Origin: a virus
Length of the DNA: 43,926 bases
UHGV virus genome: UHGV-0164981
Reading direction: 5' to 3' (one strand)
Shown: positions 1,576 through 43,926 of the stretch, piece after piece
How positions within the stretch are numbered: the first letter of the stretch is position 1
How the letters are laid out: each line of letters opens with the position of its first letter
The notes under the pieces: model-generated
What the model was told of the DNA's origin: nothing
Databases searched by the model: none
What the model saw: the letters and a program-made list of their open reading frames with translations, nothing else
Position numbers and translations under genes: made by a program

Positions 1576-2826
1576 TTAAAGTGCGAAAGTCACCGGGATG
1601 TTGATTACTGGTTTAACCACCGGCATCTCGTAAACTACAGGATAGCCGAGAGCATCCGCCATATGGTCAATGATGCCGTCTTTAGCTGGCTCTCCGTTAT
1701 CGTCGTATGCCTGCTGCTCCAGCGTCTTTGCTATCTCAGGGCATAAGTGGTCGTTAACCCACAGCTTACCTTTTTCCAGCGCGGTATTCACGGCTAAAAC
1801 ACGGTCTTTAACCGGTGGGTTGGCGGATTTAGCGCGGACATCAAAACCGGCCTGCTGTAGTAAGGCAATATCGGAGATTGATGCCGAGTTGGTTTTGCGG
1901 TTCTTGCCGCTGGCGTCGGGGTAAACGACGATGCGGTGGCCTTGTGACTTCCACTTCTCAGTAATTACGCGCACGGTGTCTGGTGTATCGAACAAGCCTT
2001 TCAGTTCTGCTACCGCGTGCCAGCCGTCTTTACGTTGCACATACACGGCGCTGGCGTTTTTCGTAACGTTGAAGTCCTGCCCGATGTACAGTGTGTCGCC
2101 TGGCTGAATCGTCTCTTTGCTGCGGTGCTTGCGACGGTCATACGCGTAATACACGCTGCCGGATGTCAGGTTGACGAACTCACCGTTCAGATACGCGTTA
2201 ATCAACTGTGCTGGGTAAGTCTCTGTCAGCGAGCTGATGTAATCCGGTGGCAGGAAACGCGCGTTCTCGTGTGTTGAAGCCTGCACCATCGAGTAACTCG
2301 GTGTCGGATTCTCTTTGAACTTGGCGTAGACGAACTTGAACCCTTCCGGCGTCGTGGTTACGGAGATGTGGTTAATTACACCCGGGATAACCAGACGCAT
2401 ACGGGCTACAATTTTGTTCCACGCCAGTTCCGCCTTCTCGCGGCTCAATACGTCCAGTTCATCCACGACCGCAGCAGCGATTTTGAAACCTACGATAGAG
2501 CCAGGGTTATCCATCGAACGGCAGATAACCGTCCCGAGAACCGTCTTACCGCGAGTAACCACGACTTCTTTGTCACCGGATTTAACCAGCACATCAAGGC
2601 CGAGCAGGTTAGCCGCTTCCTCGAATGTCGGGTAGAAGATGTCGCGGATAGCTGGATATGTGGGGCCGAAGTAACCCAGGCGCGTACCTGGATGCTTGAG
2701 CATAAACGTAAGCAGGTCAAGGCAGCCAACAAATGTCTTTCCGCTGCCGAAGCCTCCGACGTAGGCCTTGTACTTGTTATCGCAATTCAGGAACAGCGCC
2801 TGAGGGGCGGATAGCTGAATACTCAT
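1576..2826 (-). CDS. terminase large subunit
   Basis: 416 aa; N-terminal Walker A-like GGFGSGKT, Walker B-like VVDELD; ATG at 2826 overlaps the stop of the upstream ORF; portal follows. Confidence 0.85.
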   Translation of the reverse strand: MSIQLSAPQALFLNCDNKYKAYVGGFGSGKTFVGCLDLLTFMLKHPGTRLGYFGPTYPAIRDIFYPTFEEAANLLGLDVLVKSGDKEVVVTRGKTVLGTVICRSMDNPGSIVGFKIAAAVVDELDVLSREKAELAWNKIVARMRLVIPGVINHISVTTTPEGFKFVYAKFKENPTPSYSMVQASTHENARFLPPDYISSLTETYPAQLINAYLNGEFVNLTSGSVYYAYDRRKHRSKETIQPGDTLYIGQDFNVTKNASAVYVQRKDGWHAVAELKGLFDTPDTVRVITEKWKSQGHRIVVYPDASGKNRKTNSASISDIALLQQAGFDVRAKSANPPVKDRVLAVNTALEKGKLWVNDHLCPEIAKTLEQQAYDDNGEPAKDGIIDHMADALGYPVVYEMPVVKPVINIPVTFAL

Positions 2827-3368
2827 TCCTCTACCTCGCCCATGTTTGTGGTAACTATTTTGCCTACGGGCTCCGCAACACTGAAAATAATCTCAGTCGG
2901 TGCCGTTTCTTCGGTGGATTCGACCGGTTTCTCTTTGCTAAGGCCTAGCTTCGCGGCAGCAAATGTAGCCGAGATGCCCGCGGCCCCGGTCTCGGTGAAG
3001 TATGCCTCTTCCAGTGCCTGTGCAGTTTCATAGGCTTCTGCAAATGCGGGAATCTCGCGCAGCCATAGCTTAATAATCGGGATAGTGACGCCGATGTGTA
3101 AGGCGAAGCGGGCCAGTGACGGTGGTTTATCCTGAATCAGCGGGCGTTCGTCACCCTTGGACGTAGGTACAAGTTCCCACGACGTGCGGTCGAAGAACTC
3201 GATTAACGCGTCGCAATAGTCCGGGTCCCACAACGCGGCGGAATTACGGGACGATTGATAAAGGCTCTGTTTCCCACGCGGTCGCCTACGGCGGCGGTTT
3301 GCACTAACAGCTTCTTCATGTGCAGCTTGCACCACCTCTGGCGATGGCTGCTTGAGTTTCAGCTTCAT
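2823..3368 (-). CDS. putative terminase small subunit
   Basis: ORF directly upstream of and overlapping TerL (ATGA-type junction). Track ORF extends to 3407 with a non-ATG start; the internal ATG (MKLKLKQ...) at about 3368 has an AAGGGGA RBS. Arg-rich N-terminal stretch; call is by position only. Confidence 0.4.
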   Translation of the reverse strand: MKLKLKQPSPEVVQAAHEEAVSANRRRRRPRGKQSLYQSSRNSAALWDPDYCDALIEFFDRTSWELVPTSKGDERPLIQDKPPSLARFALHIGVTIPIIKLWLREIPAFAEAYETAQALEEAYFTETGAAGISATFAAAKLGLSKEKPVESTEETAPTEIIFSVAEPVGKIVTTNMGEVEE

Positions 3369-3466
3369 AGAATCCCCTTGCATATGCGTCTGACCATCAG
3401 AGCGCACCAGACGCGCCCTACGCGTCTAAAGGGATTATATAAGGGGATTGGGCGGGATGTACAGAA

Positions 3467-3486
3467 AAGCCCTCCGTAGAGGGCTT
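3467..3486 (-). terminator. hairpin GCCCTC-CGTA-GAGGGC followed by a U-run on the minus strand
   Basis: Read from sequence; separates the small-gene block from the packaging genes. Confidence 0.5.
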
Positions 3487-3578
3487 GTATCAGTTATATA
3501 GGCCGTGTCGTGGTGCTCTCTTACCGTCGCCGTCGTAATGGTCATTAGCTACGGCGATAGCCCAGGCGTTAGGGATGA

Positions 3579-3821
3579 TTAGTAACCGCATTCGTTCTCC
3601 TCTTTAGCAATACGTTGTTCAGTTTTAGTGATGCCACGGCGCGTGAATAACACCGGGCTTGTCTTAACGTGCGTCATCAGACGGTTGTTATAGATTACGT
3701 GGCGCTCACATTTCACGTCTTTGCTGTACTTCGCGATCGTCATTTCGTTGAGGCCAGTTTGTCGGCATGTCTCCGCCATCGTGCCGAATTCTTTAATCAG
3801 GTTAGGAATGCTGGTAATCAT
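3579..3821 (-). CDS. small hypothetical protein with possible HTH
   Basis: Track ORF 3579-3845; internal ATG at about 3821 overlaps the upstream stop. Segment ETCRQTGLNEMTIAKY looks HTH-like. Confidence 0.3.
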   Translation of the reverse strand: MITSIPNLIKEFGTMAETCRQTGLNEMTIAKYSKDVKCERHVIYNNRLMTHVKTSPVLFTRRGITKTEQRIAKEENECGY

Positions 3822-4012
3822 CCTAAGAAATTCCTCGTTGTCCACATCGCATTCGGATATTTGTTATCGCGGTCCTGCACTACGGCAATCACGTTACCAC
3901 GTTGCACCAGGCAGAAGTGCCGTTGTTGCTCACCGTTGTAGCGACGCCAGATTGCTTCTTCGATTGCCGCATTAATGTCACTGAACACTGTCTCTACCCC
4001 ACATAAACCCAA
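3818..4012 (-). CDS. hypothetical protein
   Basis: 64-aa ORF in a tightly packed co-directional series of small genes. Confidence 0.3.
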   Translation of the reverse strand: MGLCGVETVFSDINAAIEEAIWRRYNGEQQRHFCLVQRGNVIAVVQDRDNKYPNAMWTTRNFLG

Positions 4013-4181: not shown

Positions 4182-4364
4182 TCACCCAACTATCTCATCA
4201 CCAAGCCACGCCGTTTCTCGTATATCATCGACCACACAGGCGGCGTGCTCACGGCTAATTGCAAAAATGTAGAAACTAAACTTCTTCCCGTCGGCGTCGA
4301 TATGGTTAACCGAGTAGGGTTTCCACAGGACACCATCAATTACTACTGGTTTAGGCGACTTCAT
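4182..4364 (-). CDS. hypothetical protein
   Basis: 60-aa ORF, co-directional small-gene block, overlaps neighbour by 14 nt. Confidence 0.35.
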   Translation of the reverse strand: MKSPKPVVIDGVLWKPYSVNHIDADGKKFSFYIFAISREHAACVVDDIRETAWLGDEIVG

Positions 4365-4599
4365 ACGCTTTACCGCATTTTAAGCATGTGACTCGATGCA
4401 CCCCATCAACTAAATGCAGGCGGTAATCATGCTCGCAGGCGTTCATCTTTTCCCCTTCTCCTCTCAACAACATGAGAAGAACCTTAAATGCGGCTAACTG
4501 GTACTCACCGTTAATCGACAGTTGCCCGCCTAGCGTCTGTTTCTCCGACTCAAGCACCAGAATACGGCGCTCGAGCGATGCGATTGTGATTTTAGGCAT
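4351..4599 (-). CDS. hypothetical protein with C-terminal Cys/His cluster
   Basis: 82-aa ORF; C-terminal CEHDYRL...CLKCG suggests a zinc-ribbon-like element; stop/start overlap with next gene. Confidence 0.35.
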   Translation of the reverse strand: MPKITIASLERRILVLESEKQTLGGQLSINGEYQLAAFKVLLMLLRGEGEKMNACEHDYRLHLVDGVHRVTCLKCGKAYEVA

Positions 4600-5648: not shown

Positions 5649-6137
5649 TCAGCCTTTCACCGCACGTCCAATAGCAACCGCCTCTTGCCACGGTTTACCG
5701 TCGAACAGTGCCAGACGTCCAGCGGTACGGCGGCGCAAGCCAAGTAATGGTTTGCCGTTCTGGTTGATGAACAGCGCCAGCTTGGCCCGCAGTGTCGCAA
5801 CGTCGCCTGAGCGCAGTGCCTTACCGGTACCGGTAGTAGCTGCGATAACGCCAGCACCCGCGTTAAATACCAGGTCGCACACTGCATCGAACTGCGCCTG
5901 TGTCAGCGAATGGTGTGCGGCGGCGTCAACCGCAGCTACGGCCTTAGCCATGTCGCGATTCAGTAACAGGAGGCCTTGGCCTGGTGTGATGGTCTGCCCG
6001 GCCTTAACATGTGGGCCATAGCTTCCGTACCCAATAGTAAGGTACTTCTCATTTGGCGTAGCACGATACGCAGTCCCGCGGAACCCCTCGAACGCGGCGG
6101 TGAAATGCAGTCCATTATCTGAAATATTTCGAGACAC
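5649..6137 (-). CDS. endolysin, GH24 (T4/P22-type) lysozyme
   Basis: Motifs ISDNGLHFTAAFEGFRG...YLTIGYG...QAQFDAVCDLVFNAG...LLGLRRRTAGRLALF match the conserved layout of phage lysozymes. Track ORF starts at a TTG (6188); a GTG at about 6137 with a GGAGGA RBS gives an N-terminus like P22-type lysozymes. Confidence 0.75.
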   Translation of the reverse strand: MSRNISDNGLHFTAAFEGFRGTAYRATPNEKYLTIGYGSYGPHVKAGQTITPGQGLLLLNRDMAKAVAAVDAAAHHSLTQAQFDAVCDLVFNAGAGVIAATTGTGKALRSGDVATLRAKLALFINQNGKPLLGLRRRTAGRLALFDGKPWQEAVAIGRAVKG

Positions 6138-6387
6138 GCTTATGTCCTCCGTATGACAGCCACGCCTGACGAATCTGGCGCAGCGCAACTAATGTGATTA
6201 ATGTCTCAGGCAGCGTTGGTGACACGCTGCCCTGTAACAGGTGGATACATCCGGCGGCGCAGACGATAGCAGTCAGGATATAGAGCACCCGGCCGAACAG
6301 CCCGTCATCAACGCTGGGATGGTACACATTAAACAGCGATGTACCCCCGATTGCCAGCATACCGCCGAACCAGAATAACTCATTCAT
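6115..6387 (-). CDS. holin/antiholin-like small membrane protein
   Basis: About 90 aa from the internal ATG (MNELFWFGGMLAIGG...) with GAGGAGG RBS; two hydrophobic segments; sits between holin and endolysin. Confidence 0.5.
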   Translation of the reverse strand: MNELFWFGGMLAIGGTSLFNVYHPSVDDGLFGRVLYILTAIVCAAGCIHLLQGSVSPTLPETLITLVALRQIRQAWLSYGGHKRVSKYFR

Positions 6388-6688
6388 CCGGGCCTCCTCG
6401 ACGTGAGATGTATTCCCCGGCGACGATACCGGAGAGGCGGGAATAGATAGGCATCCAGAGAATAGCGATGATGAAACCCAGACCAGCGATTTCACGCTCC
6501 CCGGTAATGCCGAACCATTGGGCAGCGAGAGGCGCACCGAATACGGCGCAAGCGAAGCCGGTTACAATAAAGAATAAGCCGTCGATGGGTCCAGAAATAA
6601 CGGACTTATGTTGTCGTAGTCCGATGACCCCTCCGGCGAGTGCGGCAGCGAGAAGCCAGCCTGTCACTGTTTCAGTAAATTTATCCAA
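6380..6688 (-). CDS. holin
   Basis: 102 aa with multiple hydrophobic helices (WLLAAALAGGVIGL, LFFIVTGFACAVFGAPLAA, GLGFIIAILWMPIY) and a charged C-terminus; first gene of the lysis cassette; TTG start with GGAGGA RBS 6 nt upstream. Confidence 0.55.
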   Translation of the reverse strand: MDKFTETVTGWLLAAALAGGVIGLRQHKSVISGPIDGLFFIVTGFACAVFGAPLAAQWFGITGEREIAGLGFIIAILWMPIYSRLSGIVAGEYISRRGGPDE

Positions 6689-6763
6689 GATGAATCCTCC
6701 AGGTGCGTATTAAGTATGCAGTAACTGGAGGATAGCACGGTTAGGAATTATCTTAATAACGGT

Positions 6764-7057
6764 TTATTTATGACGCCAGATGTATTGTCGTCTCTGCGGT
6801 TTCGTCGGAATATCATCGTATCCGAGCGATTTCCAGTAATTAAATAACCGATTAGCGATTGCAGCGCGTTCCTGCGTTTTAAACTCACCGAGATTCACGG
6901 CCTTCCAGTTCTGGAATCCACAGGCGCGGACAGCTTTGCGTCGGGCCTGAATCTCAGGGTACAGCGCGTTACCCCGACGCTTGCATATCTGTGTTTTAGC
7001 TCTCGGTGACAGCGGCGAGAGGCCGCTTCGTTTCAGGATGTCAGTTGCAAGGCTCAT
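6764..7057 (-). CDS. hypothetical protein
   Basis: Track ORF 6764-7102; the internal ATG at about 7057 overlaps the upstream stop. Confidence 0.35.
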   Translation of the reverse strand: MSLATDILKRSGLSPLSPRAKTQICKRRGNALYPEIQARRKAVRACGFQNWKAVNLGEFKTQERAAIANRLFNYWKSLGYDDIPTKPQRRQYIWRHK

Positions 7058-8349: not shown

Positions 8350-8381
8350 TGAATAGTAGCCTATTCTATCTTAGCGTGCAA
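8350..8381 (-). promoter_or_regulatory. class A promoter (TTGCAC-17 nt-TACTATTCA) reading leftwards
   Basis: Reverse complement reads TTACTTGCAC gctaagatagaataggc TACTATTCA; lies upstream of a small ORF starting at about 8332. Confidence 0.5.
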
Positions 8382-9448: not shown

Positions 9449-9480
9449 TGAATAGTATCCTATTATATTGGGGTGTGCAA
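9449..9480 (-). promoter_or_regulatory. class A promoter (TTGCAC-17 nt-TACTATTCA) reading leftwards
   Basis: Reverse complement reads TCTTGCAC accccaatataatagga TACTATTCACTTA, nearly identical to the element at 31631-31670. Confidence 0.55.
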
Positions 9481-12870: not shown

Positions 12871-12892
12871 AAAGGGGCATTAAGCCCCTTCA
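12871..12892. terminator. bidirectional hairpin GGGGC-ATTAA-GCCCC between convergent genes
   Basis: Inverted repeat flanked by A-run and T-rich sequence, between the 12669-12866 (+) and 12880-13095 (-) genes. Confidence 0.5.
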
Positions 12893-13095
12893 CCTAACGC
12901 CAGCCACTTGGCGTCTACTTCCAGCACTTCCGCCAGTTTAAACAGCGTTGCCGGGCGGACGTCCTGAGTTACACCGAGAGCCAGCTGGTTAATCGCACCC
13001 TGGGAAACGCCAGTCAGGACAGCCAGCCGGCGCTGGGAGATGCCGAGTTCTTTACGGCGTTGCTCTACACGGATTCCTAGTTCAGATGGTTGCAT
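12880..13095 (-). CDS. XRE-family (Cro/CI-type) HTH transcriptional regulator
   Basis: 71 aa; LGISQRRLAVLTGVSQGAINQLALG is a classical Cro/CI HTH; the only minus-strand gene inside the plus-strand replication module, with its own upstream promoter and AAGGAG RBS. Confidence 0.7.
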   Translation of the reverse strand: MQPSELGIRVEQRRKELGISQRRLAVLTGVSQGAINQLALGVTQDVRPATLFKLAEVLEVDAKWLALGEGA

Positions 13096-13126
13096 GTCAA
13101 TTACTCCTTAGTCAGTTGATATGTGA

Positions 13127-13155
13127 ATAGTACCATATTAATTATTTTAGAAAAG
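13127..13155 (-). promoter_or_regulatory. class A-like promoter (TACTATTCA -10 region) for the XRE regulator gene
   Basis: Reverse complement reads ...TTAATATGG TACTATTCA CATATC followed by AAGGAG and ATG; -35 is weak. Confidence 0.45.
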
Positions 13156-13159
13156 CCCA

Positions 13160-13188
13160 TTGACATGTGAATAGTTCGCTATTATAGT
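13160..13188 (+). promoter_or_regulatory. class B promoter (TTGACA-17 nt-TATAGT) with GAATAG-N4-CTATT inverted repeat in the spacer
   Basis: TTGACA tgtgaatagttcgctat TATAGT; divergent from the XRE gene promoter. Confidence 0.6.
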
Positions 13189-15782: not shown

Positions 15783-15811
15783 TTGACACCTGAATAGCAA
15801 GCTATTATAGT
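15783..15811 (+). promoter_or_regulatory. class B promoter (TTGACA-17 nt-TATAGT) with GAATAG-N4-CTATT inverted repeat
   Basis: TTGACA cctgaatagcaagctat TATAGT upstream of the SSB-like gene. Confidence 0.6.
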
Positions 15812-30752: not shown

Positions 30753-31077
30753 GATTTCTACCTTCAAATATTGCTTCTAAGCCCATGATAATGTCTATCT
30801 CGAACAGGCTAAGCTGTTTTTGCGTAACATCGAGATAGGCTTTCAGGTCTTGCCACGTAACAGATTCTCTTGCAAACAATACTACAGCGTCCTCGCGCAC
30901 GTGTCGCGTAAACTTAATGTCGCAATACGTCTCAAAGGTGGATATAAAAAGGGGCGGGCATTCTGGCCCACCCCGTCGCGCTGCACGTTTTTTCTTATCG
31001 ATTACACCCATCGCGATAAGCGCCTGTTCGTGTCCGTCGGCGATAGAATCAAACTCTCTGATTTTATGCTTATCCAC
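30745..31077 (-). CDS. tail assembly chaperone, downstream (T-like) frame, probably expressed as a frameshift fusion
   Basis: ORF has no ATG start in good context; its frame stays open upstream to about 31128 and overlaps the last 6 codons of the upstream chaperone ORF in the -1 frame. Confidence 0.45.
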   Translation of the reverse strand: MDKHKIREFDSIADGHEQALIAMGVIDKKKRAARRGGPECPPLFISTFETYCDIKFTRHVREDAVVLFARESVTWQDLKAYLDVTQKQLSLFEIDIIMGLEAIFEGRNHG

Positions 31078-31109
31078 AAACTCGTAGGTGGCGAACCTGT
31101 ACAGCGCGT

Positions 31110-31634: not shown

Positions 31635-31663
31635 TTGCACACCCCAATATAATAGGGTACTAT
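31635..31663 (+). promoter_or_regulatory. class A promoter (TTGCAC-17 nt-TACTAT) driving the plus-strand cassette
   Basis: TTACTTGCAC accccaatataataggg TACTATTCACTTA; same element as at 9449-9480, 8350-8381 and 41133-41161. Confidence 0.6.
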
Positions 31664-31693
31664 TCACTTACACCAACAATGAAGGGGTTTAAA

Positions 31694-31923: not shown

Positions 31924-33054
31924 ATGGCCCAGAAGAAAATAACCGACGAACAGTTACAGGAAGAATTGAACGCCGGGATGAAGAATGTAGACATCGCCCG
32001 TAAATACGGCATCTCAGACCGCGTTATTCGTATCCGTAAAGCGAAGCTGGCTAAGAAAGGCGTAGGTCACGGGCGAGACGTTAGTCACCTTGTGCCCGAT
32101 GGCTACAAGATTAAGGGTACATCGTCTCTGGTGGACGAGTTCGGCAACACTAAGTTGCAATGGGTTAAGACCGACACCGATGCCGAACGTCAGGTAGAGT
32201 TGATGAAAGCCGTAATCGAAGGAATGAAATCAGAGATTACGCCAGTCGCCCCTGTTAAAGCGGCACGCGCCAAACGTGACGATAAACTACTCAATCTTTA
32301 CACTGTGTCTGATTTTCATCTCGGTATGCTGGCATGGGCCGATGAGAGCGGCGACGACTGGGATATGAAGATTGCAGAAGACCTGTTCTCTCGATGGTTC
32401 GACGCGGCGTTTCAGAAAGCACCGGACGCGGGAACAGGAGTTATTAACCTTCTGGGCGACCTCGCTCACTTCGATAGTCTGGATGCAGTTACACCTGCAA
32501 GCGGGCATGTTCTTGATGCGGACACGCGCTATCAGAAACTTGTACGCTATATGATTCGGATGGTCCGCCGTGTCATTGATATGGCGCTGGTTAAGCATAA
32601 AAATGTTCGCTTGCTTATCGTGCAAGGGAACCACGACGAAAGCGGAATGATTTGGTTGGCTGAGATGTTCAGTACGCTGTATGACAACGAGCCGCGGGTG
32701 TTCGTCGATACGTCGCCGGATGTTTACAAGATGGTGCAACACGGCAAAACGACGCTGTTCTTTCATCACGGTCACAAAGCACGCTTCGACGCTATCGAAC
32801 CAGTTATGATTGCCAAGTTCCGCAAAGCGTTCGGCGAGAGTATTTACAGCTACGCCCACGTAGGCCATCTGCACCACCAGAAGATTGTAGAAAGCCGTAA
32901 CATGATTGTTGAGCAACACCGCACCTTAGCGGCTAAAGACGCCTACGCCTCTCGCGGCGGATGGATGTCGGGCCGCAGTGCAAATGTAATTACTTATAGC
33001 GCCGAATATGGCGAGGTCGCACGTTTAACTATTTCACCGGAGATGCTGGGATGA
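31924..33054 (+). CDS. HTH domain fused to calcineurin-like metallophosphoesterase (SbcD/Mre11-type motifs)
   Basis: 376 aa; N-terminal NVDIARKYGISDRVIRIRKAKL (HTH-like), then SDFHLG, GDLAHFD, QGNHDE, FFHHGH and GHLHHQ in the canonical order of binuclear metallophosphoesterase motifs. Confidence 0.7.
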   Translation: MAQKKITDEQLQEELNAGMKNVDIARKYGISDRVIRIRKAKLAKKGVGHGRDVSHLVPDGYKIKGTSSLVDEFGNTKLQWVKTDTDAERQVELMKAVIEGMKSEITPVAPVKAARAKRDDKLLNLYTVSDFHLGMLAWADESGDDWDMKIAEDLFSRWFDAAFQKAPDAGTGVINLLGDLAHFDSLDAVTPASGHVLDADTRYQKLVRYMIRMVRRVIDMALVKHKNVRLLIVQGNHDESGMIWLAEMFSTLYDNEPRVFVDTSPDVYKMVQHGKTTLFFHHGHKARFDAIEPVMIAKFRKAFGESIYSYAHVGHLHHQKIVESRNMIVEQHRTLAAKDAYASRGGWMSGRSANVITYSAEYGEVARLTISPEMLG

Positions 33055-37071: not shown

Positions 37072-37584
37072 TTAACCCCGGTACACGTTAAACGAGAAGC
37101 CATTGTTAAGGCCGCCGCAAAGAAGCGGGCGCAAGGCATCATCCGCTGCGGTGATTGATGTAGTAGCGCCAGAGCTGCCGTTGTTGAAGTAGGTGACTGT
37201 TACCGCGCCCTCTACGCGCTCGGTCTGTACTGAACGCCCGTCTGAGTTGGCACGTACCTCTGTGCCAGAACCGTATGTTACAGAGGCGATTACCTGAGCA
37301 AGAATTACCTGCTTAGGAATTACATTATTAGCCACAGGGAAGCCGTTCAGCGTTACCCCGGTTCGCGGGTACGCCAGTGACTGCTCGGCGGACACACGGC
37401 GACCACACATCTGCGGTTCAGACAGGCCAACATAAGTAGCGCCGTTGCGCAGGGCCACCTCTGCGGCAGTATCGTCCGCAGGCAACTCCAGACCGTAATT
37501 AGCCGCTAACGCGCGGGCGTCAGCCAGACTAACGTAACTGTCAGCGTCAGGTACTATCGACCCGTCTTCCACGATTAGCGGCAT
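37072..37584 (-). CDS. virion structural protein
   Basis: 170-aa ORF in the head-tail joining block. Confidence 0.35.
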   Translation of the reverse strand: MPLIVEDGSIVPDADSYVSLADARALAANYGLELPADDTAAEVALRNGATYVGLSEPQMCGRRVSAEQSLAYPRTGVTLNGFPVANNVIPKQVILAQVIASVTYGSGTEVRANSDGRSVQTERVEGAVTVTYFNNGSSGATTSITAADDALRPLLCGGLNNGFSFNVYRG

Positions 37585-37803
37585 AAATTATTCCTCTGAC
37601 TTACGGCGACGACGCTTGGCACCACCGCCGTTGTTGTGCGCTTCTTCGTTGTCCGGTTGAGCTGCGACCAGTTCATCAGCTTCTACCACACCGCGAACAG
37701 GCATCACCTGACCGTCAACAACATCAACGTGGGTGTACTTTTCGCGGATTACATAATTATCTGCCATGGCCTTTCCTTATTACGGCCCCGAAGGGCCGTT
37801 GCA

Positions 37804-40235: not shown

Positions 40236-40317
40236 AGTCAGTATGTCCCCTGGACGTTGGAATCCGGGCCTCCCGGATTTACATGTCAAGAATAAATTAT
40301 TCCAACATACAAGGCAA

Positions 40318-40581
40318 CTATTCCAGAATATTCCTCACGTAATCCTGCAACATGAACACTTTCAGTCTCAGTTGCCGTGTGCATTCGGCGTTCTGAACGT
40401 CGATGGCTAAATCCTCGTCAGCGTCGCTACTTGGCGGTGCCAGTTTGCACGGTGGTTGCATCATCGTCGTATCCGGGGATGGAATTGGCGTTTGCAACGG
40501 CGCGGGACTTGAGCAGGACGCGAGCATCATCGAAAGTGCACACGCTGCGACCAGGCGTTTTAATGTACTTAACGACTTCAC
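40318..40581 (-). CDS. o-spanin (Rz1-like outer-membrane lipoprotein)
   Basis: 87 aa; signal peptide with lipobox (LAACALSMMLASC), Pro-rich mature part (PAPLQTPIPSPD...PPCKLAPP); starts inside and in a different frame from the Rz-like gene. Confidence 0.55.
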   Translation of the reverse strand: MKSLSTLKRLVAACALSMMLASCSSPAPLQTPIPSPDTTMMQPPCKLAPPSSDADEDLAIDVQNAECTRQLRLKVFMLQDYVRNILE

Positions 40582-40813
40582 GTGTAATTACCTCTGATTT
40601 CGTCTTACCTTCGTTGTCAGCGGCTGCGGCCTTTGATTCATCCTGCTGCTGCCGTTGTGTTTTCTTCGCTAGCTCAGCCTGTGCTTTCTGCTGTTGCTGC
40701 GAAACGAGATTAGCACGGCCTTCACCCCAGCCGCTGCGGTATTGATAGATGCCGTGTGCGTAGGCCAGGACGACGAAACATGCTCCGGCTACGACAGTTG
40801 CTTTAAGATTCAT
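40427..40813 (-). CDS. i-spanin (Rz-like)
   Basis: 128 aa; N-terminal TM (VVAGACFVVLAYAHGIYQY) followed by Gln/Ala/Lys-rich coiled-coil-like periplasmic region; overlapped by the lipoprotein ORF. Confidence 0.55.
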   Translation of the reverse strand: MNLKATVVAGACFVVLAYAHGIYQYRSGWGEGRANLVSQQQQKAQAELAKKTQRQQQDESKAAAADNEGKTKSEVITREVVKYIKTPGRSVCTFDDARVLLKSRAVANANSIPGYDDDATTVQTGTAK

Positions 40814-40835
40814 GTTTCCCCTTTCTCGATAAGTA

Positions 40836-40855
40836 AAGCCCCGCCTTAAAGCGGG
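40836..40855 (-). terminator. hairpin GCCCCGC-CTTAAA-GCGGGGC just upstream of the Rz-like gene
   Basis: Same stem as at 9725-9744; on the minus strand it is followed by a U-rich tract. Confidence 0.4.
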
Positions 40856-41064
40856 GCGCTAGTCCTTATCATTTAAACATAGAAACGGCGTAATCTCAGT
40901 AAACCAGTTACTTTTTACACAAGCAATAGAGTATGGCCCTTCCGAACGCGTCAGCGTAACTACACTCAGGACTTACGTCCCGCTCCGTTACCTGCCCGCG
41001 CCGCGGTCGCTTGTTCATACTTCACAAGCTCAGGTGGAGCTTATCATATTTTCAGTGAAAAGTC

Positions 41065-41080
41065 AACTATTCGAATAGTT
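41065..41080. promoter_or_regulatory. perfect 16-bp palindrome AACTATTCGAATAGTT (candidate operator)
   Basis: Read directly; uses the same CTATTC/GAATAG half-sites as the spacer repeats of the class B promoters. Confidence 0.5.
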
Positions 41081-41132
41081 TATTCCAACGTTTACAATTG
41101 AGTGGAATAACTGGAATACGTAAATAAATAGT

Positions 41133-41161
41133 TTGCGCACACCAACATAATAGGGTACTAT
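41133..41161 (+). promoter_or_regulatory. class A promoter (TTGCGC-17 nt-TACTAT) driving the 41189 ORF
   Basis: GTTTGCGCAC accaacataataggg TACTATTCAG, then CAGGAG RBS and ATG. Confidence 0.55.
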
Positions 41162-41188
41162 TCAGTTAACTTAAACAGGAGATGAGAA

Positions 41189-41710
41189 ATGGTTACTACA
41201 GTAATTACTTTCCCTGCGTATGTAGGGGCAAAAATCTGCAGGGCTAAAAATGATGTGCGCTACTATTTGAACGCTTTTTACATAGACCCTGAAGGATTGA
41301 TAGTGTCTACGGACGGTCATAGATTGTTCTGCGACAATGTGAAGACCAATGTTGAGAAAGGGACTCTCATAGACATCAAAGGGAGAGAGCCTTCTAAATT
41401 TAACTACGCAGAGGTAAACCACGACAACGGCAGTGTAACTTTCTATGACGATAATCGTGCGCTTATATGCACGCTTCCGGTAGATGTTGTAGAAGGAAAC
41501 TTTCCTGACTGGAGACGCGTGGCGAACATCACACCGGGTGTTGTCGATAGTATAGGGTTCACTCTGCGCTATTTGGCAGACGCGTACAAGATTTCTAAGG
41601 CATACAAAAATGAAATTGCTCGTTTCGATTTCCAGGACCAAACCAGAGGATGTAAAATACTATTTTCAAACACGGCCTTTATGGTGTTAATGCCTGCGCG
41701 ATTTAAATAA
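41189..41710 (+). CDS. hypothetical protein encoded by a plus-strand moron inside the head module
   Basis: 173-aa ORF with AGGAG RBS, own promoter and terminator; no recognisable motifs, no TM segment or signal peptide. Confidence 0.55.
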   Translation: MVTTVITFPAYVGAKICRAKNDVRYYLNAFYIDPEGLIVSTDGHRLFCDNVKTNVEKGTLIDIKGREPSKFNYAEVNHDNGSVTFYDDNRALICTLPVDVVEGNFPDWRRVANITPGVVDSIGFTLRYLADAYKISKAYKNEIARFDFQDQTRGCKILFSNTAFMVLMPARFK

Positions 41711-41714
41711 AACT

Positions 41715-41737
41715 AAGGCCCCATAATGGGGCCTTTT
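41715..41737. terminator. bidirectional hairpin AGGCCCC-ATAAT-GGGGCCTTTT
   Basis: Between the convergent 41189-41710 (+) and 41739-42197 (-) genes. Confidence 0.6.
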
Positions 41738-41738
41738 A

Positions 41739-42894: not shown

Positions 42895-43875
42895 TTATAC
42901 CGACCTAAGATATTCAGCAACCCTGTTATCTAACGCCGCCATCTCCTTCAAGGTTAAAGGTCTACCAAAAGCGTCGACGGATATTACCCGGAATTCCTCT
43001 GGGGATATCCCACTATTCCTGAATATAGCACCGCGGGTAGGTCCGAGTGCTTCATCCACGAACCATGCCGGTTGCTGTTTCAGGAACTCGTAATAGGTGG
43101 TGTCTGCGCTTACCTGCATACCGCCGTCCGCACCCTTAGCCGCGCGTTTTGCACCTTTATCTAGGAAGTCGAACTCCGAACTGATTACCGGTGCAGTGGT
43201 ACTTCGACATCCAAAATGGGCGGGGGGCATCGGACCTTTACCGATTTCCCACGTCATCCCGTCTCTGGCCCTGCAAATCGTACTGGTACGACTGTCCAGC
43301 GTTGACACCCATTCGTATTTCTCGATGATGTCGTCGTTCTGGCGGTATGTCTCGTTGCGGGCTTCGTTGGATACGTGAGACAGCGCGGTGCGGATTACCG
43401 TAGCCGCGTTGCGTTCAGAGATGTCCGCCAGCCCACCAGCGCCTACGACATTTTTAACAATCTGCCGTGTGGTTTGGCCCTGAACAAACCCCATCTTAAC
43501 GCCGGTTACGAGGCGCGCGGCCTCCGTTTCACCCCAGCCTGCCATCAGCTTAGTGAAATCGACGGGCTTGTCGCTTAATGATAAGGGTTGAAACTCGGCA
43601 GCGGACCACACCTGTTCGGCGGTAGGCGTAACAAATTCCGCGTCAACGTTGGCGGTCAGTGTTTTTACGTTCCACTCAGCCTCATATGCGGCCAGTTCCT
43701 TAAGGTCTTCTGCCAGTTTTGTTTGCCAGTCACCTGTAAGCCCGGTTAATGCTTCTTCGAGGTCGCGTAACAGTTTATTCAGTCGCGCAGTGCTTCGCCC
43801 GTCATCGCCGAAAAGCAGCACCTGCCGTTTGATTTCGTCCCGCATCTCCTGAATAAACGGTGCGAGGTCTTTCAC
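42895..43875 (-). CDS. head morphogenesis protein (MuF / SPP1 gp7-like minor head protein)
   Basis: 326 aa; C-terminal region (WVSTLDSRTSTICRARDGMTW...PPAHFGCRS) resembles the conserved C-terminal motif of MuF-family proteins. Track start is a GTG; true start uncertain (possible internal ATG 10 codons downstream). Confidence 0.55.
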   Translation of the reverse strand: MKDLAPFIQEMRDEIKRQVLLFGDDGRSTARLNKLLRDLEEALTGLTGDWQTKLAEDLKELAAYEAEWNVKTLTANVDAEFVTPTAEQVWSAAEFQPLSLSDKPVDFTKLMAGWGETEAARLVTGVKMGFVQGQTTRQIVKNVVGAGGLADISERNAATVIRTALSHVSNEARNETYRQNDDIIEKYEWVSTLDSRTSTICRARDGMTWEIGKGPMPPAHFGCRSTTAPVISSEFDFLDKGAKRAAKGADGGMQVSADTTYYEFLKQQPAWFVDEALGPTRGAIFRNSGISPEEFRVISVDAFGRPLTLKEMAALDNRVAEYLRSV

Positions 43876-43926
43876 TTCGCCGGATGCGGCGCGTTGCAGC
43901 CATATCTGGTGGCTGATTAGAGATGT

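Follow-up and report, generated by a model that had tools for sequence, protein, structure and literature searches.

We propose, with a probability of roughly 60%, that the spanin locus of this virus genome (UHGV-0164981; the whole 43,926-nt stretch that was analysed is called the window below) forms the control region and the promoter-proximal section of the Guernseyvirinae head operon, with the spanin genes embedded in it and with moron sites on its flanks. The placement of the spanins is ordinary for Guernseyvirinae and has been published previously. The features that seem to be undescribed are a conserved predicted promoter accompanied by operator-like repeats, a structured leader RNA and an accessory-gene hotspot, and a literature search for the control elements found no published description. 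A first-pass annotation of the same DNA had listed an overlapping spanin pair, flanking repeats and palindromes and a GCCCCGC hairpin; all of these features are present, either exactly where it had put them or within 1-3 nt.

The spanin pair and its place in a circular genome

Two overlapping genes were assigned as spanins:

40427..40813, minus strand: Rz, i-spanin, 128 aa (PHROG 2536 'Rz-like spanin', E 5e-55)
40318..40581, minus strand: Rz1, o-spanin, 87 aa, GTG start (PHROG 1267 and PHROG 5672)

Judged from its sequence, Rz/Rz1 is a canonical overlapped two-component spanin. Rz has a single N-terminal transmembrane helix (maximum 19-residue hydropathy 1.69, residues 5-23), as a type II inner-membrane i-spanin does, and Rz1, which matches PHROG 1267 over residues 8-86 (E 4e-18), begins with the signal peptide MKSLSTLKRLVAACALSMMLAS followed by CSS, with the lipobox LASC and Ser, not Asp, at position +2, as in o-spanin lipoproteins. 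The overlapped architecture is also in place, with Rz1 in the +1 frame, overlapping Rz by 155 nt and running 109 nt past the Rz stop. Rz1 is the sole credible lipobox ORF in the window; a 49-aa lipobox ORF on the plus strand (30938-31087) was judged spurious, and a second spanin candidate sought across the window was not found. The PHROG matches, the transmembrane domain and the lipobox therefore support a genuine spanin pair, the only one in the genome. The same 264-nt Rz1 ORF is annotated in the K1ind3 record, and it corrects a common annotation error in which the o-spanin is truncated and has no signal peptide.

K1G, K1H and K1ind1-3 are listed in the 'Jersey' family of overlapped two-component spanins (Kongari et al., 2018, PMC6139136). 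The window's pair has the same N-terminal-TMD i-spanin, +1-frame lipoprotein o-spanin and 155-bp overlap as phage Jersey, and no protein-level difference sets it apart from that family; Rz identity is 91-97% among Kagunavirus loci and 62-65% against Jerseyvirus. The functional prototype is lambda Rz/Rz1, although, unlike in lambda, the window's pair lies away from the holin and endolysin genes. In one Kagunavirus, vB_VIPECOMC04, an HNH endonuclease gene sits between Rz and Rz1, so that the overlapped pair is now separated. T5-like phages Shivani and phiR201 also carry a homing endonuclease between their spanin genes (Kongari et al., 2018, PMC6139136), but theirs is of the GIY-YIG type, and the literature searched held no mention of the vB_VIPECOMC04 insertion. 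A single weak PADLOC match for the spanins (Rz against the PtuA ATPase model, E 0.0028) was disregarded.

The spanins had initially been placed about 34 kb from the holin and endolysin genes, a distance that has to be revised. The window is a complete circular Kagunavirus genome, linearised inside a MuF-like head gene, and its two ends are colinear across the junction with phage Schulenburg. Since the circular genome was cut, the 34-kb gap is a linearisation artefact, and the true gap is about 8.8 kb, the Rz start lying 8,762 nt past the endolysin stop along the direction of transcription. A separate spanin location is already in print for a 97%-identical relative, phage Schulenberg (Schulenburg in records; PMC6763661). 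Rz/Rz1 lie between a Hoc-like decoration gene and the scaffold gene, a position that is fixed across Guernseyvirinae and an arrangement that is kept in about 490 genomes of the subfamily; the synteny comparison suggested by the first-pass annotation thus returned the same placement subfamily-wide.

A conserved putative promoter, operator-like repeats and an insertion hotspot

The DNA on either side of the spanin pair holds the following features:

41038..41066, minus strand: P_B, predicted promoter for the leader, Rz/Rz1, scaffold and capsid genes (sigma-70 scan and conservation)
41073..41118, no strand assigned: O2, operator-like cluster upstream of P_B (conserved palindrome and tandem repeat)
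40284..40334, no strand assigned: site A, O2 cluster upstream of the scaffold gene (conserved across lineages)
41119..41738, plus strand: variable moron cassette (presence/absence and replacement at a fixed junction)
41133-41138 and 41156-41161, plus strand: early-type promoter of the cassette, -35 TTGCGC, 17 nt, -10 TACTAT (motif ATAATAGGGTACTATTCA at 41147-41164)
41189-41710, plus strand: truncated beta-clamp-like gene, 173 aa (aligns to DnaN 144-252 and 312-365, E ~1e-4)
41715-41735: bidirectional terminator of the moron cassette (terminator prediction)

A terminator 3' of the Hoc-like gene is followed by the conserved putative promoter P_B, and this places the spanins in a predicted transcription unit separate from that of the holins and endolysin, in agreement with the separate control that had been suggested. 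P_B is composed of a -35 hexamer TTGACT (41066-41061), a 17-nt spacer, TG (41046-41045), A, and a -10 hexamer TAAGCT (41043-41038), and so has the -35-like hexamer, 17±1 spacer, TGn and TAnnnT of a sigma-70 extended -10 promoter. A stringent sigma-70 scan of the window left just 10 sites, P_B among them, and P_B lies 224 nt 5' of the Rz start codon. In 50 unique sequences from Kagunavirus and Jerseyvirus the TG, TA and GCT positions are invariant while the spacer varies; phiEap-2, SP-031 and TS33 have the same geometry, and the site overlaps an in silico promoter in the record of phage PVP-SE2. Other lineages have TAGACT, TGGACT or TGGATT as the -35 and TACGCT or TAACCT as the -10. One RNA-seq paper on a Kagunavirus (infection by phage K1B4; PMC12645636), checked for transcript ends, gave no positional information; by its name this phage may correspond to vB_EcoS-K1_SXAU_B4 (OQ696342), whose identity to the window in this region is about 92-93%.

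The GGAATA/TATTCC repeats that flank the spanins are not due to chance. TATTCCA occurs on the plus strand at 40298-40304, 40319-40325 and 41081-41087, and TGGAATA at 41103-41109 and 41112-41118, while the copy near 40330 reads TATTCCT, a one-mismatch version of the 7-mer whose minus strand still contains GGAATA exactly. These two short segments hold five of the seven TATTCCA copies of the whole window, and clusters as dense as theirs (three GGAATA/TATTCC hexamers within 105 nt, and three within 61 nt) arose in no more than 1 of 10,000 local shuffles of matched composition. A perfect 6+1+6 palindrome, GAATAAATTATTC, lies at 40290-40302. The perfect 16-mer palindrome AACTATTCGAATAGTT (41065-41080) is at chance level in 44 kb (0.67 expected) and is not kept in Jerseyvirus. 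The exact sequence GGAATANNNTATTC is found in the window only at 41073-41086 and 40290-40303, and GGAATA-N3-TATTC with at most one mismatch has seven matches against 0.67 expected, exact only at these two sites. In six complete genomes, the window and five relatives, exact copies of the palindrome are confined to the region from the Hoc-like gene through Rz to the scaffold gene. A third near-palindrome (37581-37594) is not kept in Schulenburg or other genomes and was taken as chance.

Within O2, the palindrome GGAATAAACTATTC (41086-41073, minus strand) stands 6 nt upstream of the P_B -35, together with the tandem repeat TATTCCAGTTATTCC (41118-41104). The cluster is kept in Kagunavirus and Jerseyvirus and, with a shuffled arrangement, in phiEap-2, SP-031 and TS33; AH01 has a different inverted repeat, TTGATAG, at the corresponding position. 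Minus-strand reading of site A gives GGAATATTCTGGAATAG (final Rz1 codons plus stop), then TTGCCTT, N6, TGGAATAATTTATTC (40304-40290) and TTGACA (40289-40284); the site is nearly invariant in Kagunavirus, Jerseyvirus, Cornellvirus, phiEap-2 and TS6. Because Cornellvirus keeps site A with the end of Rz1 about 400 nt away, Rz1 coding is not the reason for this conservation. The TTGACA is TTGTTA in Jerseyvirus, and the aligned sequences, read by eye, contain neither a sigma-70 -10 element 3' of it (at 16-18 nt or longer spacings) nor sigma-54, sigma-E or sigma-28 elements downstream. Taken together, the repeats on both flanks are conserved and operator-like, and they accompany a promoter whose hexamers are weak in several lineages, a pattern that fits activator dependence.

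A short AT-rich motif that recurs in non-coding DNA, in several direct and inverted copies, could also be read as iterons of a replication origin or as a packaging site. We rejected the origin idea on GC skew, which, when cumulated, turns at ~9-11 kb and ~21 kb and not near 40-41 kb. In addition, no DnaA-box match was seen on reading the sequence, the replication genes are 20 kb away, one copy of the motif stands directly before the scaffold gene and its spacing to the promoter is conserved, so that this reading is hardly tenable.

The suggestion of a recombination-prone insertion hotspot is well supported. The Hoc-Rz gap ranges from 316 to 1117 nt and accommodates 11 unrelated cargo families, the window's included, each of which joins the core at one and the same base, immediately upstream of 41118 and beside the O2 cluster. 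The window's cassette has its own promoter and its own terminator between late-operon genes, as expected of a moron; it is lacking in 22 loci and is replaced by other genes in 19. All Hoc-Rz cargoes lie on the strand opposite to the spanins and share one promoter and 5'UTR module of the early type, whose motif ATAATAGGGTACTATTCA occurs seven times in the window against 0.01 expected. Furthermore, the Rz1-scaffold gap is also an insertion hotspot in other genera, and an identical cargo gene can be found at different moron sites in different phages. PADLOC gave no match for the moron protein. The cassette is like the lambdoid morons in having its own promoter, a single cargo and a terminator, and in its presence/absence and replacement at a fixed junction. 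It differs from them in that a single promoter/5'UTR module, drawn from the phage's 7-member early-promoter family, is common to all cargoes and in that the same cargo may occupy another such site in a related phage.

These exchanges bear on whether the flanking repeats are mainly recombination linkers, that is, module boundaries homogenised by homologous exchange and not sites for a regulator, which we consider unlikely if by no means negligible. All cassette junctions are at the edge of the conserved block, cargo genes recur at different moron sites, and in six loci the junction of an alternative scaffold/capsid module coincides with the scaffold start codon; moreover, the spanins are 62-65% identical compared with 87-92% for scaffold and major capsid protein (MCP), and the flanking DNA is also less diverged. 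However, the palindrome persists while its spacer (AAC, CTT, AAT, ATT) and surroundings change, its copy number and arrangement are reshuffled in TS33, and its distance to the -35 is fixed at 6 nt in four lineages. A palindrome kept amid changing spacers and arrangements is the pattern of a recognised motif and not of simple identity by descent. The two roles are compatible with each other.

Structured RNAs before the spanin and scaffold genes

Two RNA elements were delimited in the predicted transcript:

40814..41031, minus strand: structured leader RNA, ~200 nt (covariation; 5' end inferred)
40261..40279, minus strand: inter-cistronic RNA hairpin, AAUCCGGG-AGG-CCCGGAUU (covariation)

The 5' domain of the leader (~41007-40933) ends in the invariant segment GGAAGGGCC, and its 3' stem-loop (40870-40828), with the GCCCCGC/GCGGGGC hairpin (40857-40838) at the tip, is followed by the Rz Shine-Dalgarno (40825-40818). 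RNAalifold gave 32 pairs, nine of them with compensatory changes, which come mainly from two large clades and a few outliers and so represent few independent events. The leader has an MFE z-score of -2.88, 93% of cells in its alignment are paired (matched by 0 of 500 shuffles), and its covariation score is 0.237 compared with at most 0.052 when the partners were slid. For example, the 3' stem is GAUAAG/CUUAUC in Kagunavirus and UAUACG/CGUAUA in Jerseyvirus, and in other genera GNRA and UNCG tetraloops interchange. The leader is mosaic between lineages, and its 3' segment has two mutually exclusive pairings, both apparently supported. Rfam 15 gave no match for the whole window at the gathering threshold and no credible match for the region and nine diverse related loci at a permissive threshold, and an IMG/VR scan with a gapped pattern that combined two invariant segments of the leader returned mostly chance matches. 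A 36-aa ORF (40908-41018, minus strand) that is annotated in several records was rejected as a gene, being broken in six Kagunavirus loci (frameshifted or truncated in five, without a start codon in the other) and missing from Jerseyvirus; the annotation is thereby corrected, this "hypothetical protein" being part of the non-coding leader.

At the tip of the 3' stem-loop, GCCCCGC (40838-40844) pairs with GCGGGGC (40851-40857) in a hairpin of eight pairs, seven of them G-C, with a loop of 4, and two of the pairs covary. This is the GC-rich stem-loop of a terminator, but a conserved U run does not follow it: the tail is TTTACTTATC in the window, where the U-tract is weak, whereas TTAGCGTATA in Jerseyvirus and TGTTACG in phiEap-2 and Cornellvirus contain none. 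Because the U-tract is missing in other genera, the hairpin is not a conserved intrinsic terminator, and the Schulenburg record, which annotates other terminators, has none here. A promoter-like site, a structured non-coding RNA and a GC-rich hairpin followed by TTTACTTATC would also suit a free-standing small RNA gene at 41031-40830, with Rz/Rz1, scaffold and MCP transcribed from elsewhere. This we regard as highly unlikely, given that the stretches from the hairpin to Rz and from Rz1 to scaffold hold no further promoter-like site, that most other lineages have no U-tract at the hairpin, and that the 3' flank of the hairpin pairs with the upstream leader up to the ribosome-binding site.

The order of elements is the same as in the late-operon leader of lambda (pR' - 6S RNA - tR' - S R Rz/Rz1 - head genes), both having a promoter, a ~200-nt non-coding leader with a terminal hairpin, lysis genes and head genes in succession. 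In contrast to lambda, neither a Q homologue nor a Q-binding element was found, the holin and endolysin genes are in another unit, and the leader is strongly structured and covarying, with a terminal hairpin that is not a conserved intrinsic terminator. The shared order would fit a leader that is part of a processive antitermination device, either lambda pR'-6S-tR'-like with a Q-like factor at P_B or an HK022 put-like RNA, which would carry polymerase past the leader stem-loop and downstream terminators into the late genes. Also in keeping with such a device, Cornellvirus has a strong terminator and an antisense gene between Rz1 and scaffold with no recognisable promoter after them, and the Schulenburg annotation places terminators after MCP as well. 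Even so, no antiterminator was found in three annotated genomes or in Pfam/PHROG scans of 20 window proteins, many small ORFs having no assigned function, and both the weak or missing U-tract and the mosaic leader count against the device, making it decidedly unlikely.

The inter-cistronic hairpin lies between Rz1 and the scaffold Shine-Dalgarno GGGGA (40250-40246) and has no U-tract. It covaries in six lineages, one pair appearing as AU, GC, UA, UG and GU, with a covariation score that 0 of 500 shuffles reach, and its G.U pairs are valid in the minus-strand transcript only. Synthesis of the P22 scaffolding protein is subject to post-transcriptional autoregulation, and a conserved RNA hairpin just 5' of the scaffold ribosome-binding site in a polycistronic late mRNA is reminiscent of that system. 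The likeness is pure analogy and involves no sequence relationship.

A proposed head-operon model and its candidate regulators

Between Rz1 and the scaffold/capsid genes the window contains neither a terminator nor a recognisable promoter, so the spanins appear to open the head operon. The proposal that the spanins are controlled on their own is consequently not supported.

In the head-operon model that we favor, a dimeric DNA-binding protein would recognise the palindromes and turn on or modulate P_B after the early phase, and the spanins, scaffold and major capsid protein would be co-transcribed. The leader and the inter-cistronic hairpin would act at the RNA level, by stabilising or processing the mRNA, by partial attenuation of transcription, or by limiting Rz translation, and any of these roles would allow a single transcript to yield little spanin but abundant scaffold and capsid protein. 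The conserved flanks may double as homologous anchors for the swapping of moron cassettes and of spanin or capsid alleles. In Cornellvirus, where Rz1 is separated from scaffold by a bidirectional terminator and by a gene on the opposite strand, simple co-transcription fails without read-through.

Candidates for the regulator are a conserved NinH/Fis-like protein (window 3579-3845) and host Fis, and a Cro-like ORF (12880-13095) is a further candidate. The NinH-like protein matches Pfam NinH at E 5e-4, under the curated cut-off; it is ~70% conserved in four other lineages and is also present in phages whose Rz promoter is without the motif. The site preferred by lambda NinH is 15 bp long, of the form G-N13-C, and AT-rich in its core (PMC7166090); GGAATAAATTATTCC of phiEap-2 and SP-031 fits this form, and the two window copies are without the outer C on one side. 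When all window ORFs were profiled against two genomes with the Rz-promoter motif and two without it, no ORF tracked the motif, and an informal comparison with consensuses for the host regulators ArgR, MetR, Lrp, IHF, CpxR, RcsAB and DnaA gave no convincing match. Annotations, family scans and profiling identified no late activator of the kind proposed in the first-pass annotation. It is conceivable, though quite unlikely, that the ~200-nt leader represents a cis-acting phage regulatory RNA of a new class and that, with the NinH homologue at the palindromes and the scaffold hairpin, it sets the timing and the ratio of spanin to scaffold/capsid across Guernseyvirinae. Variants of such a leader would be a put-like antiterminator, an attenuator, or a translational operator responding to a phage protein.

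Many Kagunavirus and Jerseyvirus phages have been isolated for therapeutic use against E. coli K1 and Salmonella, and their regulation is essentially unmapped. The present analysis provides a map of the head/spanin control region, with one predicted promoter, a locus-confined palindromic operator-like site and two structured RNAs. Additionally, the docking site, where 11 or more families of accessory genes replace one another under a common early promoter, could serve cargo engineering and the mining of anti-defence or exclusion genes.

Spanin genes on a circular genome

The 2.8 kb around the spanin locus is 96-97% identical to Escherichia phage Schulenburg (also Schulenberg) and other Kagunavirus (Guernseyvirinae) genomes, and this region matched 483 phage records in total, the majority of them from Salmonella Jerseyvirus. 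The window ends abut without a gap, with a 600-nt junction colinear with Schulenburg 3120-3719 and a MuF-like head morphogenesis gene on the minus strand bridging them (1-45 and 42895-43926). As judged from this colinear junction and the gene lying across it, the window is a complete circular or circularly permuted genome, cut inside a gene. The distance of about 34 kb that the first-pass annotation gave between the spanins and the holin and endolysin genes is thus a product of where the circle was cut; along the direction of transcription, 8,762 nt separate the endolysin stop from the Rz start. The lysis genes, assigned by PHROG and Pfam, are:

6688-6380, minus strand, holin
6537-6115, minus strand, holin
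6188-5649, minus strand, endolysin

The identity of the overlapping Rz/Rz1-like pair as spanins was supported by a transmembrane domain at the N-terminus of Rz (128 aa), its match to PHROG 2536 (5e-55) and a lipobox in Rz1. The latter (87 aa, start GTG at 40581) begins with a signal peptide of lipoprotein type that runs to LAS/C with Ser at +2, is read in frame +1 relative to Rz, has 155 nt in common with it and extends 109 nt beyond the Rz stop. The same 155-nt overlap characterizes the single overlapped spanin family of Jersey, K1G, K1H and K1ind1-3 (Kongari et al., 2018; PMC6139136). No spanin-like gene was found downstream of the endolysin among the window ORFs checked, and the sole further lipobox-bearing ORF in the window (30938-31087, plus strand) is short and was judged spurious. 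The order Hoc-like, Rz/Rz1, scaffold, major capsid protein (MCP) was kept in 50 of 50 loci with both flanking genes captured, as well as in AH01, phiEap-2, Cornellvirus SP-031, Shemara, TS6, SE1, St162 and Hafnia TS33; placement of the spanins away from the lysis cassette is already published for phage Schulenberg (PMC6763661).

In several public records, among them Schulenburg (3819-3965) and Bas73 (5861-6004), the o-spanin is given as 47-48 aa from an internal Met, without the signal peptide and lipobox; the 87-aa ORF from GTG, as annotated in K1ind3, is the plausible o-spanin gene. Additionally, in vB_VIPECOMC04 (PQ423993, region 2319-3383) an HNH endonuclease gene lies within the Rz/Rz1 overlap and has converted the overlapped pair into a separated one: Rz ends in a new C-terminus, a 48-aa leftover of its former end persists, and the signal peptide of Rz1, MRLPILLLVIGC, is new. 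Apparently the same insertion is present in fEg-Eco19. One further locus (L040, 2736-3086) carries a longer, different Rz1 allele (41% identity) with a partner Rz that is 70% identical, amid neighboring genes of 96-99% identity to the window, a pattern which indicates from sequence comparison that the spanin module was exchanged.

Insertion of genes at the spanin flanks

The gap between the Hoc-like gene and Rz varies from 316 to 1117 nt among 51 loci. When 13 cassette-bearing length classes were compared with the empty K1ind3 site as reference, all 13 proved homologous over the final 305 nt (293 nt in L029), and the extra DNA enters at a single point that, read in the direction of Rz, directly precedes TATTCCAGTTATTCC (window base 41118). 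The 29 cassette-bearing loci hold cargo of 11 unrelated families, invariably encoded opposite to Rz; among them are a lipoprotein, small membrane proteins, the window's 173-aa protein and a 242-aa protein that, to judge by its sequence motifs, may be a DNA methyltransferase. The window's moron protein (41189-41710, plus strand) aligns to residues 144-252 and 312-365 of the E. coli beta clamp DnaN (E ~1e-4), and by this alignment we regard it as a truncated clamp-like protein; public records name it 'sliding clamp' or, through PHROG 3007, 'RusA-like resolvase'.

All cargoes have in common a promoter and 5'UTR module of ~70 nt, and within it lies ATAATAGGGTACTATTCA, a near-palindrome (AATAG-N4-CTATT) that the window contains seven times where 0.01 would be expected:

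8350-8367, minus strand, copy of ATAATAGGGTACTATTCA
9449-9466, minus strand, copy of ATAATAGGGTACTATTCA
13124-13141, minus strand, copy of ATAATAGGGTACTATTCA
13168-13185, minus strand, copy of ATAATAGGGTACTATTCA
15791-15808, minus strand, copy of ATAATAGGGTACTATTCA
31649-31666, plus strand, copy of ATAATAGGGTACTATTCA
41147-41164, plus strand, copy of ATAATAGGGTACTATTCA, in the cassette

Copies outside the cassette lie near predicted or plausible early promoters in both orientations, and several of the seven share bases with the spacer or -10 of a promoter predicted to be of early or moron type. The motif equals the PHIRE repeat "tgAATAGTa-ccTATTat-T" of Kagunavirus fBC-Eco01, attributed there to a phage RNA polymerase (PMC9825357). 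No such polymerase is listed in the annotated records of the group examined, and the motif more probably represents a family of operators or promoters, perhaps serving the Cro-like protein (12880-13095).

Site A, the block between Rz1 and the scaffold gene, contains CCAACATACAAGGCAACTATTC, a degenerate copy of the cargo promoter module, and relatives do have a gene inserted here on the opposite strand (Cornellvirus, TS6, SE1, St162, AH01). The phosphoesterase gene of a second opposite-strand island in the tail region (31924-33054, plus strand) has a Shemara homologue at the Hoc-Rz site (5670-6803); identity to the window copy is 85% in Shemara and 79% in St162. The window copy lies downstream of the ATAATAGGGTACTATTCA-bearing promoter at 31649-31666. 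Taken together, cargo turnover at the Hoc-Rz gap and the site A inserts of relatives show both spanin flanks to be real exchange points; the proposed insertion hotspot is the best-supported part of the original interpretation, which as a whole is partly supported.

A predicted promoter, palindromes and a structured leader

Upstream of Rz, site B comprises, in minus-strand order, TATTCCAGTTATTCC, ~16 nt, TGGAATAAACTATTC, GAATAG, TTGACT, 17 nt, TGATAAGCT and 224 nt to the Rz ATG. Its predicted promoter, P_B (41066-41038), is among only ten genome sites passing a stringent sigma-70 scan, and an in silico promoter in the PVP-SE2 record overlaps it. Among 50 unique sequences from Kagunavirus and Jerseyvirus the spacer was variable, and these elements were (near-)invariant: the TATTCC repeats, GGAATA, TATTC, most of the -35, and the TG, TA and GCT of the extended -10. 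phiEap-2 and SP-031 conserve the geometry (palindrome, 6 nt, -35, 17 nt, TGATAACCT) with weaker -35 hexamers, and TS33 keeps the motifs in an altered arrangement. TS6, Shemara, SE1, St162 and AH01 have another promoter region before Rz that is without the palindrome motif, replaced in AH01 by the inverted repeat TTGATAG.

The repeats, both palindromes and the GCCCCGC hairpin reported earlier are all present at the positions given. Five of the seven TATTCCA/TGGAATA copies in the window fall inside 40298-40325 and 41081-41118, and three GGAATA/TATTCC hexamers per segment were matched by at most 1 in 10,000 composition-matched local shuffles. The 16-bp perfect palindrome is confined to Kagunavirus and within chance alone (1 observed, 0.67 expected in the window). 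GGAATANNNTATTC, allowing up to one mismatch, has 7 matches against 0.67 expected, with exact copies only at 41073-41086 and 40290-40303. Among six complete genomes of at least four lineages, exact copies are restricted to the Hoc-like-to-scaffold interval: each genome has one directly before the scaffold gene, and further copies stand before Rz (some lineages) or where Rz meets Rz1 (Cornellvirus-type phages). The block GGAATAGTTGCCTT-N6-TGGAATAATTTATTC-TTGACA is retained in Cornellvirus, TS6 and SE1 where the Rz1 end is ~400 nt away, so that its conservation in Kagunavirus is not due to overlap with the last Rz1 codons. The palindrome is best explained as a putative binding site of a dimeric protein, because it is short, has a variable spacer, is confined to one regulatory locus and keeps a constant distance to the promoter. 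That the flanking repeats are instead pure recombination linkers at these exchange points seems rather improbable, and a role as part of a replication origin is very improbable indeed.

The separate, possibly late-activator-dependent spanin control that accompanied the hotspot proposal fared less well: for a regulator of the palindromes, annotations name just Cro-like, small HTH and NinH-like proteins, and phylogenetic profiling found no window ORF that tracks the motif. The NinH/Fis-like HTH gene (3579-3845, minus strand; PHROG 268; Pfam NinH E 5e-4, below the cut-off) lies directly upstream of the small terminase gene, and four other Guernseyvirinae lineages encode its product with ~70% conservation. 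In lambda, NinH is a dimer of the Fis type whose preferred site is 15 bp long and has the form G-N13-C around an AT-rich core (PMC7166090). GGAATAAATTATTCC fits this form, the two window copies of the palindrome lack the outer C on one side, and the NinH-like protein is offered as a lead, a candidate binder of GGAATA-N3-TATTCC sites. Separately, an 82-aa protein (4351-4599, minus strand; PHROG 9023), found only in phiEap-2 among four other genomes compared, has a small-zinc-ribbon-like C-terminal Cys/His cluster (C-x16-C-x2-C and several His).

From its predicted start at ~41031 to the Rz ribosome-binding site, the leader RNA folds better than 200 of 200 shuffles (z = -2.88). RNAalifold on 35 sequences gave 32 pairs, 9 with compensatory double changes; in a provisional five-helix model 93% of cells were paired, and 0 of 500 shuffles reached that or the covariation score (0.237, versus at most 0.052 with partners slid 1-3 columns), a covariation that mostly divides two big clades; two alternative 3'-segment pairings both look supported. 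Conserved G.U pairs assign the structure to the minus-strand transcript. The GCCCCGC hairpin caps a longer stem, the lower helix of which reads GAUAAG/CUUAUC in Kagunavirus and UAUACG/CGUAUA in Jerseyvirus. With a U-tract that is weak in the window and missing elsewhere, the hairpin is unlikely to be a conserved intrinsic terminator. Distant phages have leaders of 230-300 nt with many GNRA- and UNCG-capped hairpins, mosaic across lineages. Several records place a 36-aa ORF in this segment; it does not occur in Jerseyvirus, and in six Kagunavirus loci it has a frameshift, is cut short or lacks a start codon. The structured leader might belong to an antitermination device, which we consider unlikely; that this segment is a free-standing sRNA appears more doubtful still. 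No Rfam match was found for the window, the region or nine diverse related loci.

The scaffold junction and a probable head operon

Site A, between Rz1 and the scaffold gene, is organized as follows:

Rz1 stop to scaffold Shine-Dalgarno, minus strand, palindrome, TTGACA (TTGTTA in Jerseyvirus) and hairpin 40279-40261

No -10 element follows the TTGACA at usual spacings, and site A was therefore not called as a promoter. The hairpin has no U-tract and covaries in six lineages (one pair is AU, GC, UA, UG or GU), with 0 of 500 shuffles attaining the observed score. The simplest reading is that it would be an mRNA element within a putative Rz-Rz1-scaffold-MCP transcript, possibly a stabilizer, processing site or protein-binding site. 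In six Kagunavirus-like contigs (L012, L017, L018, L022, L032, L034), MuF, Hoc, Rz/Rz1 and site A are as in the window and the breakpoint falls precisely on the scaffold start codon; their scaffold protein is just 66% identical, and nothing downstream of their Rz1 was found to match MCP.

We found no published description of these control elements, which are of familiar kinds. We give a probability of roughly 60% to their joint operation, in which P_B would be a regulated, probably activator-assisted, head-operon promoter, the palindromes its operators, and the spanins the first two cistrons of that operon, while the opposite-strand cassette would be a moron, expressed early and docked at the border of this control region. 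The leader and inter-cistronic hairpin would work on RNA, and the latter may help to separate the output of spanins, of which little is needed, from that of scaffold and capsid protein, for which the demand is very high.
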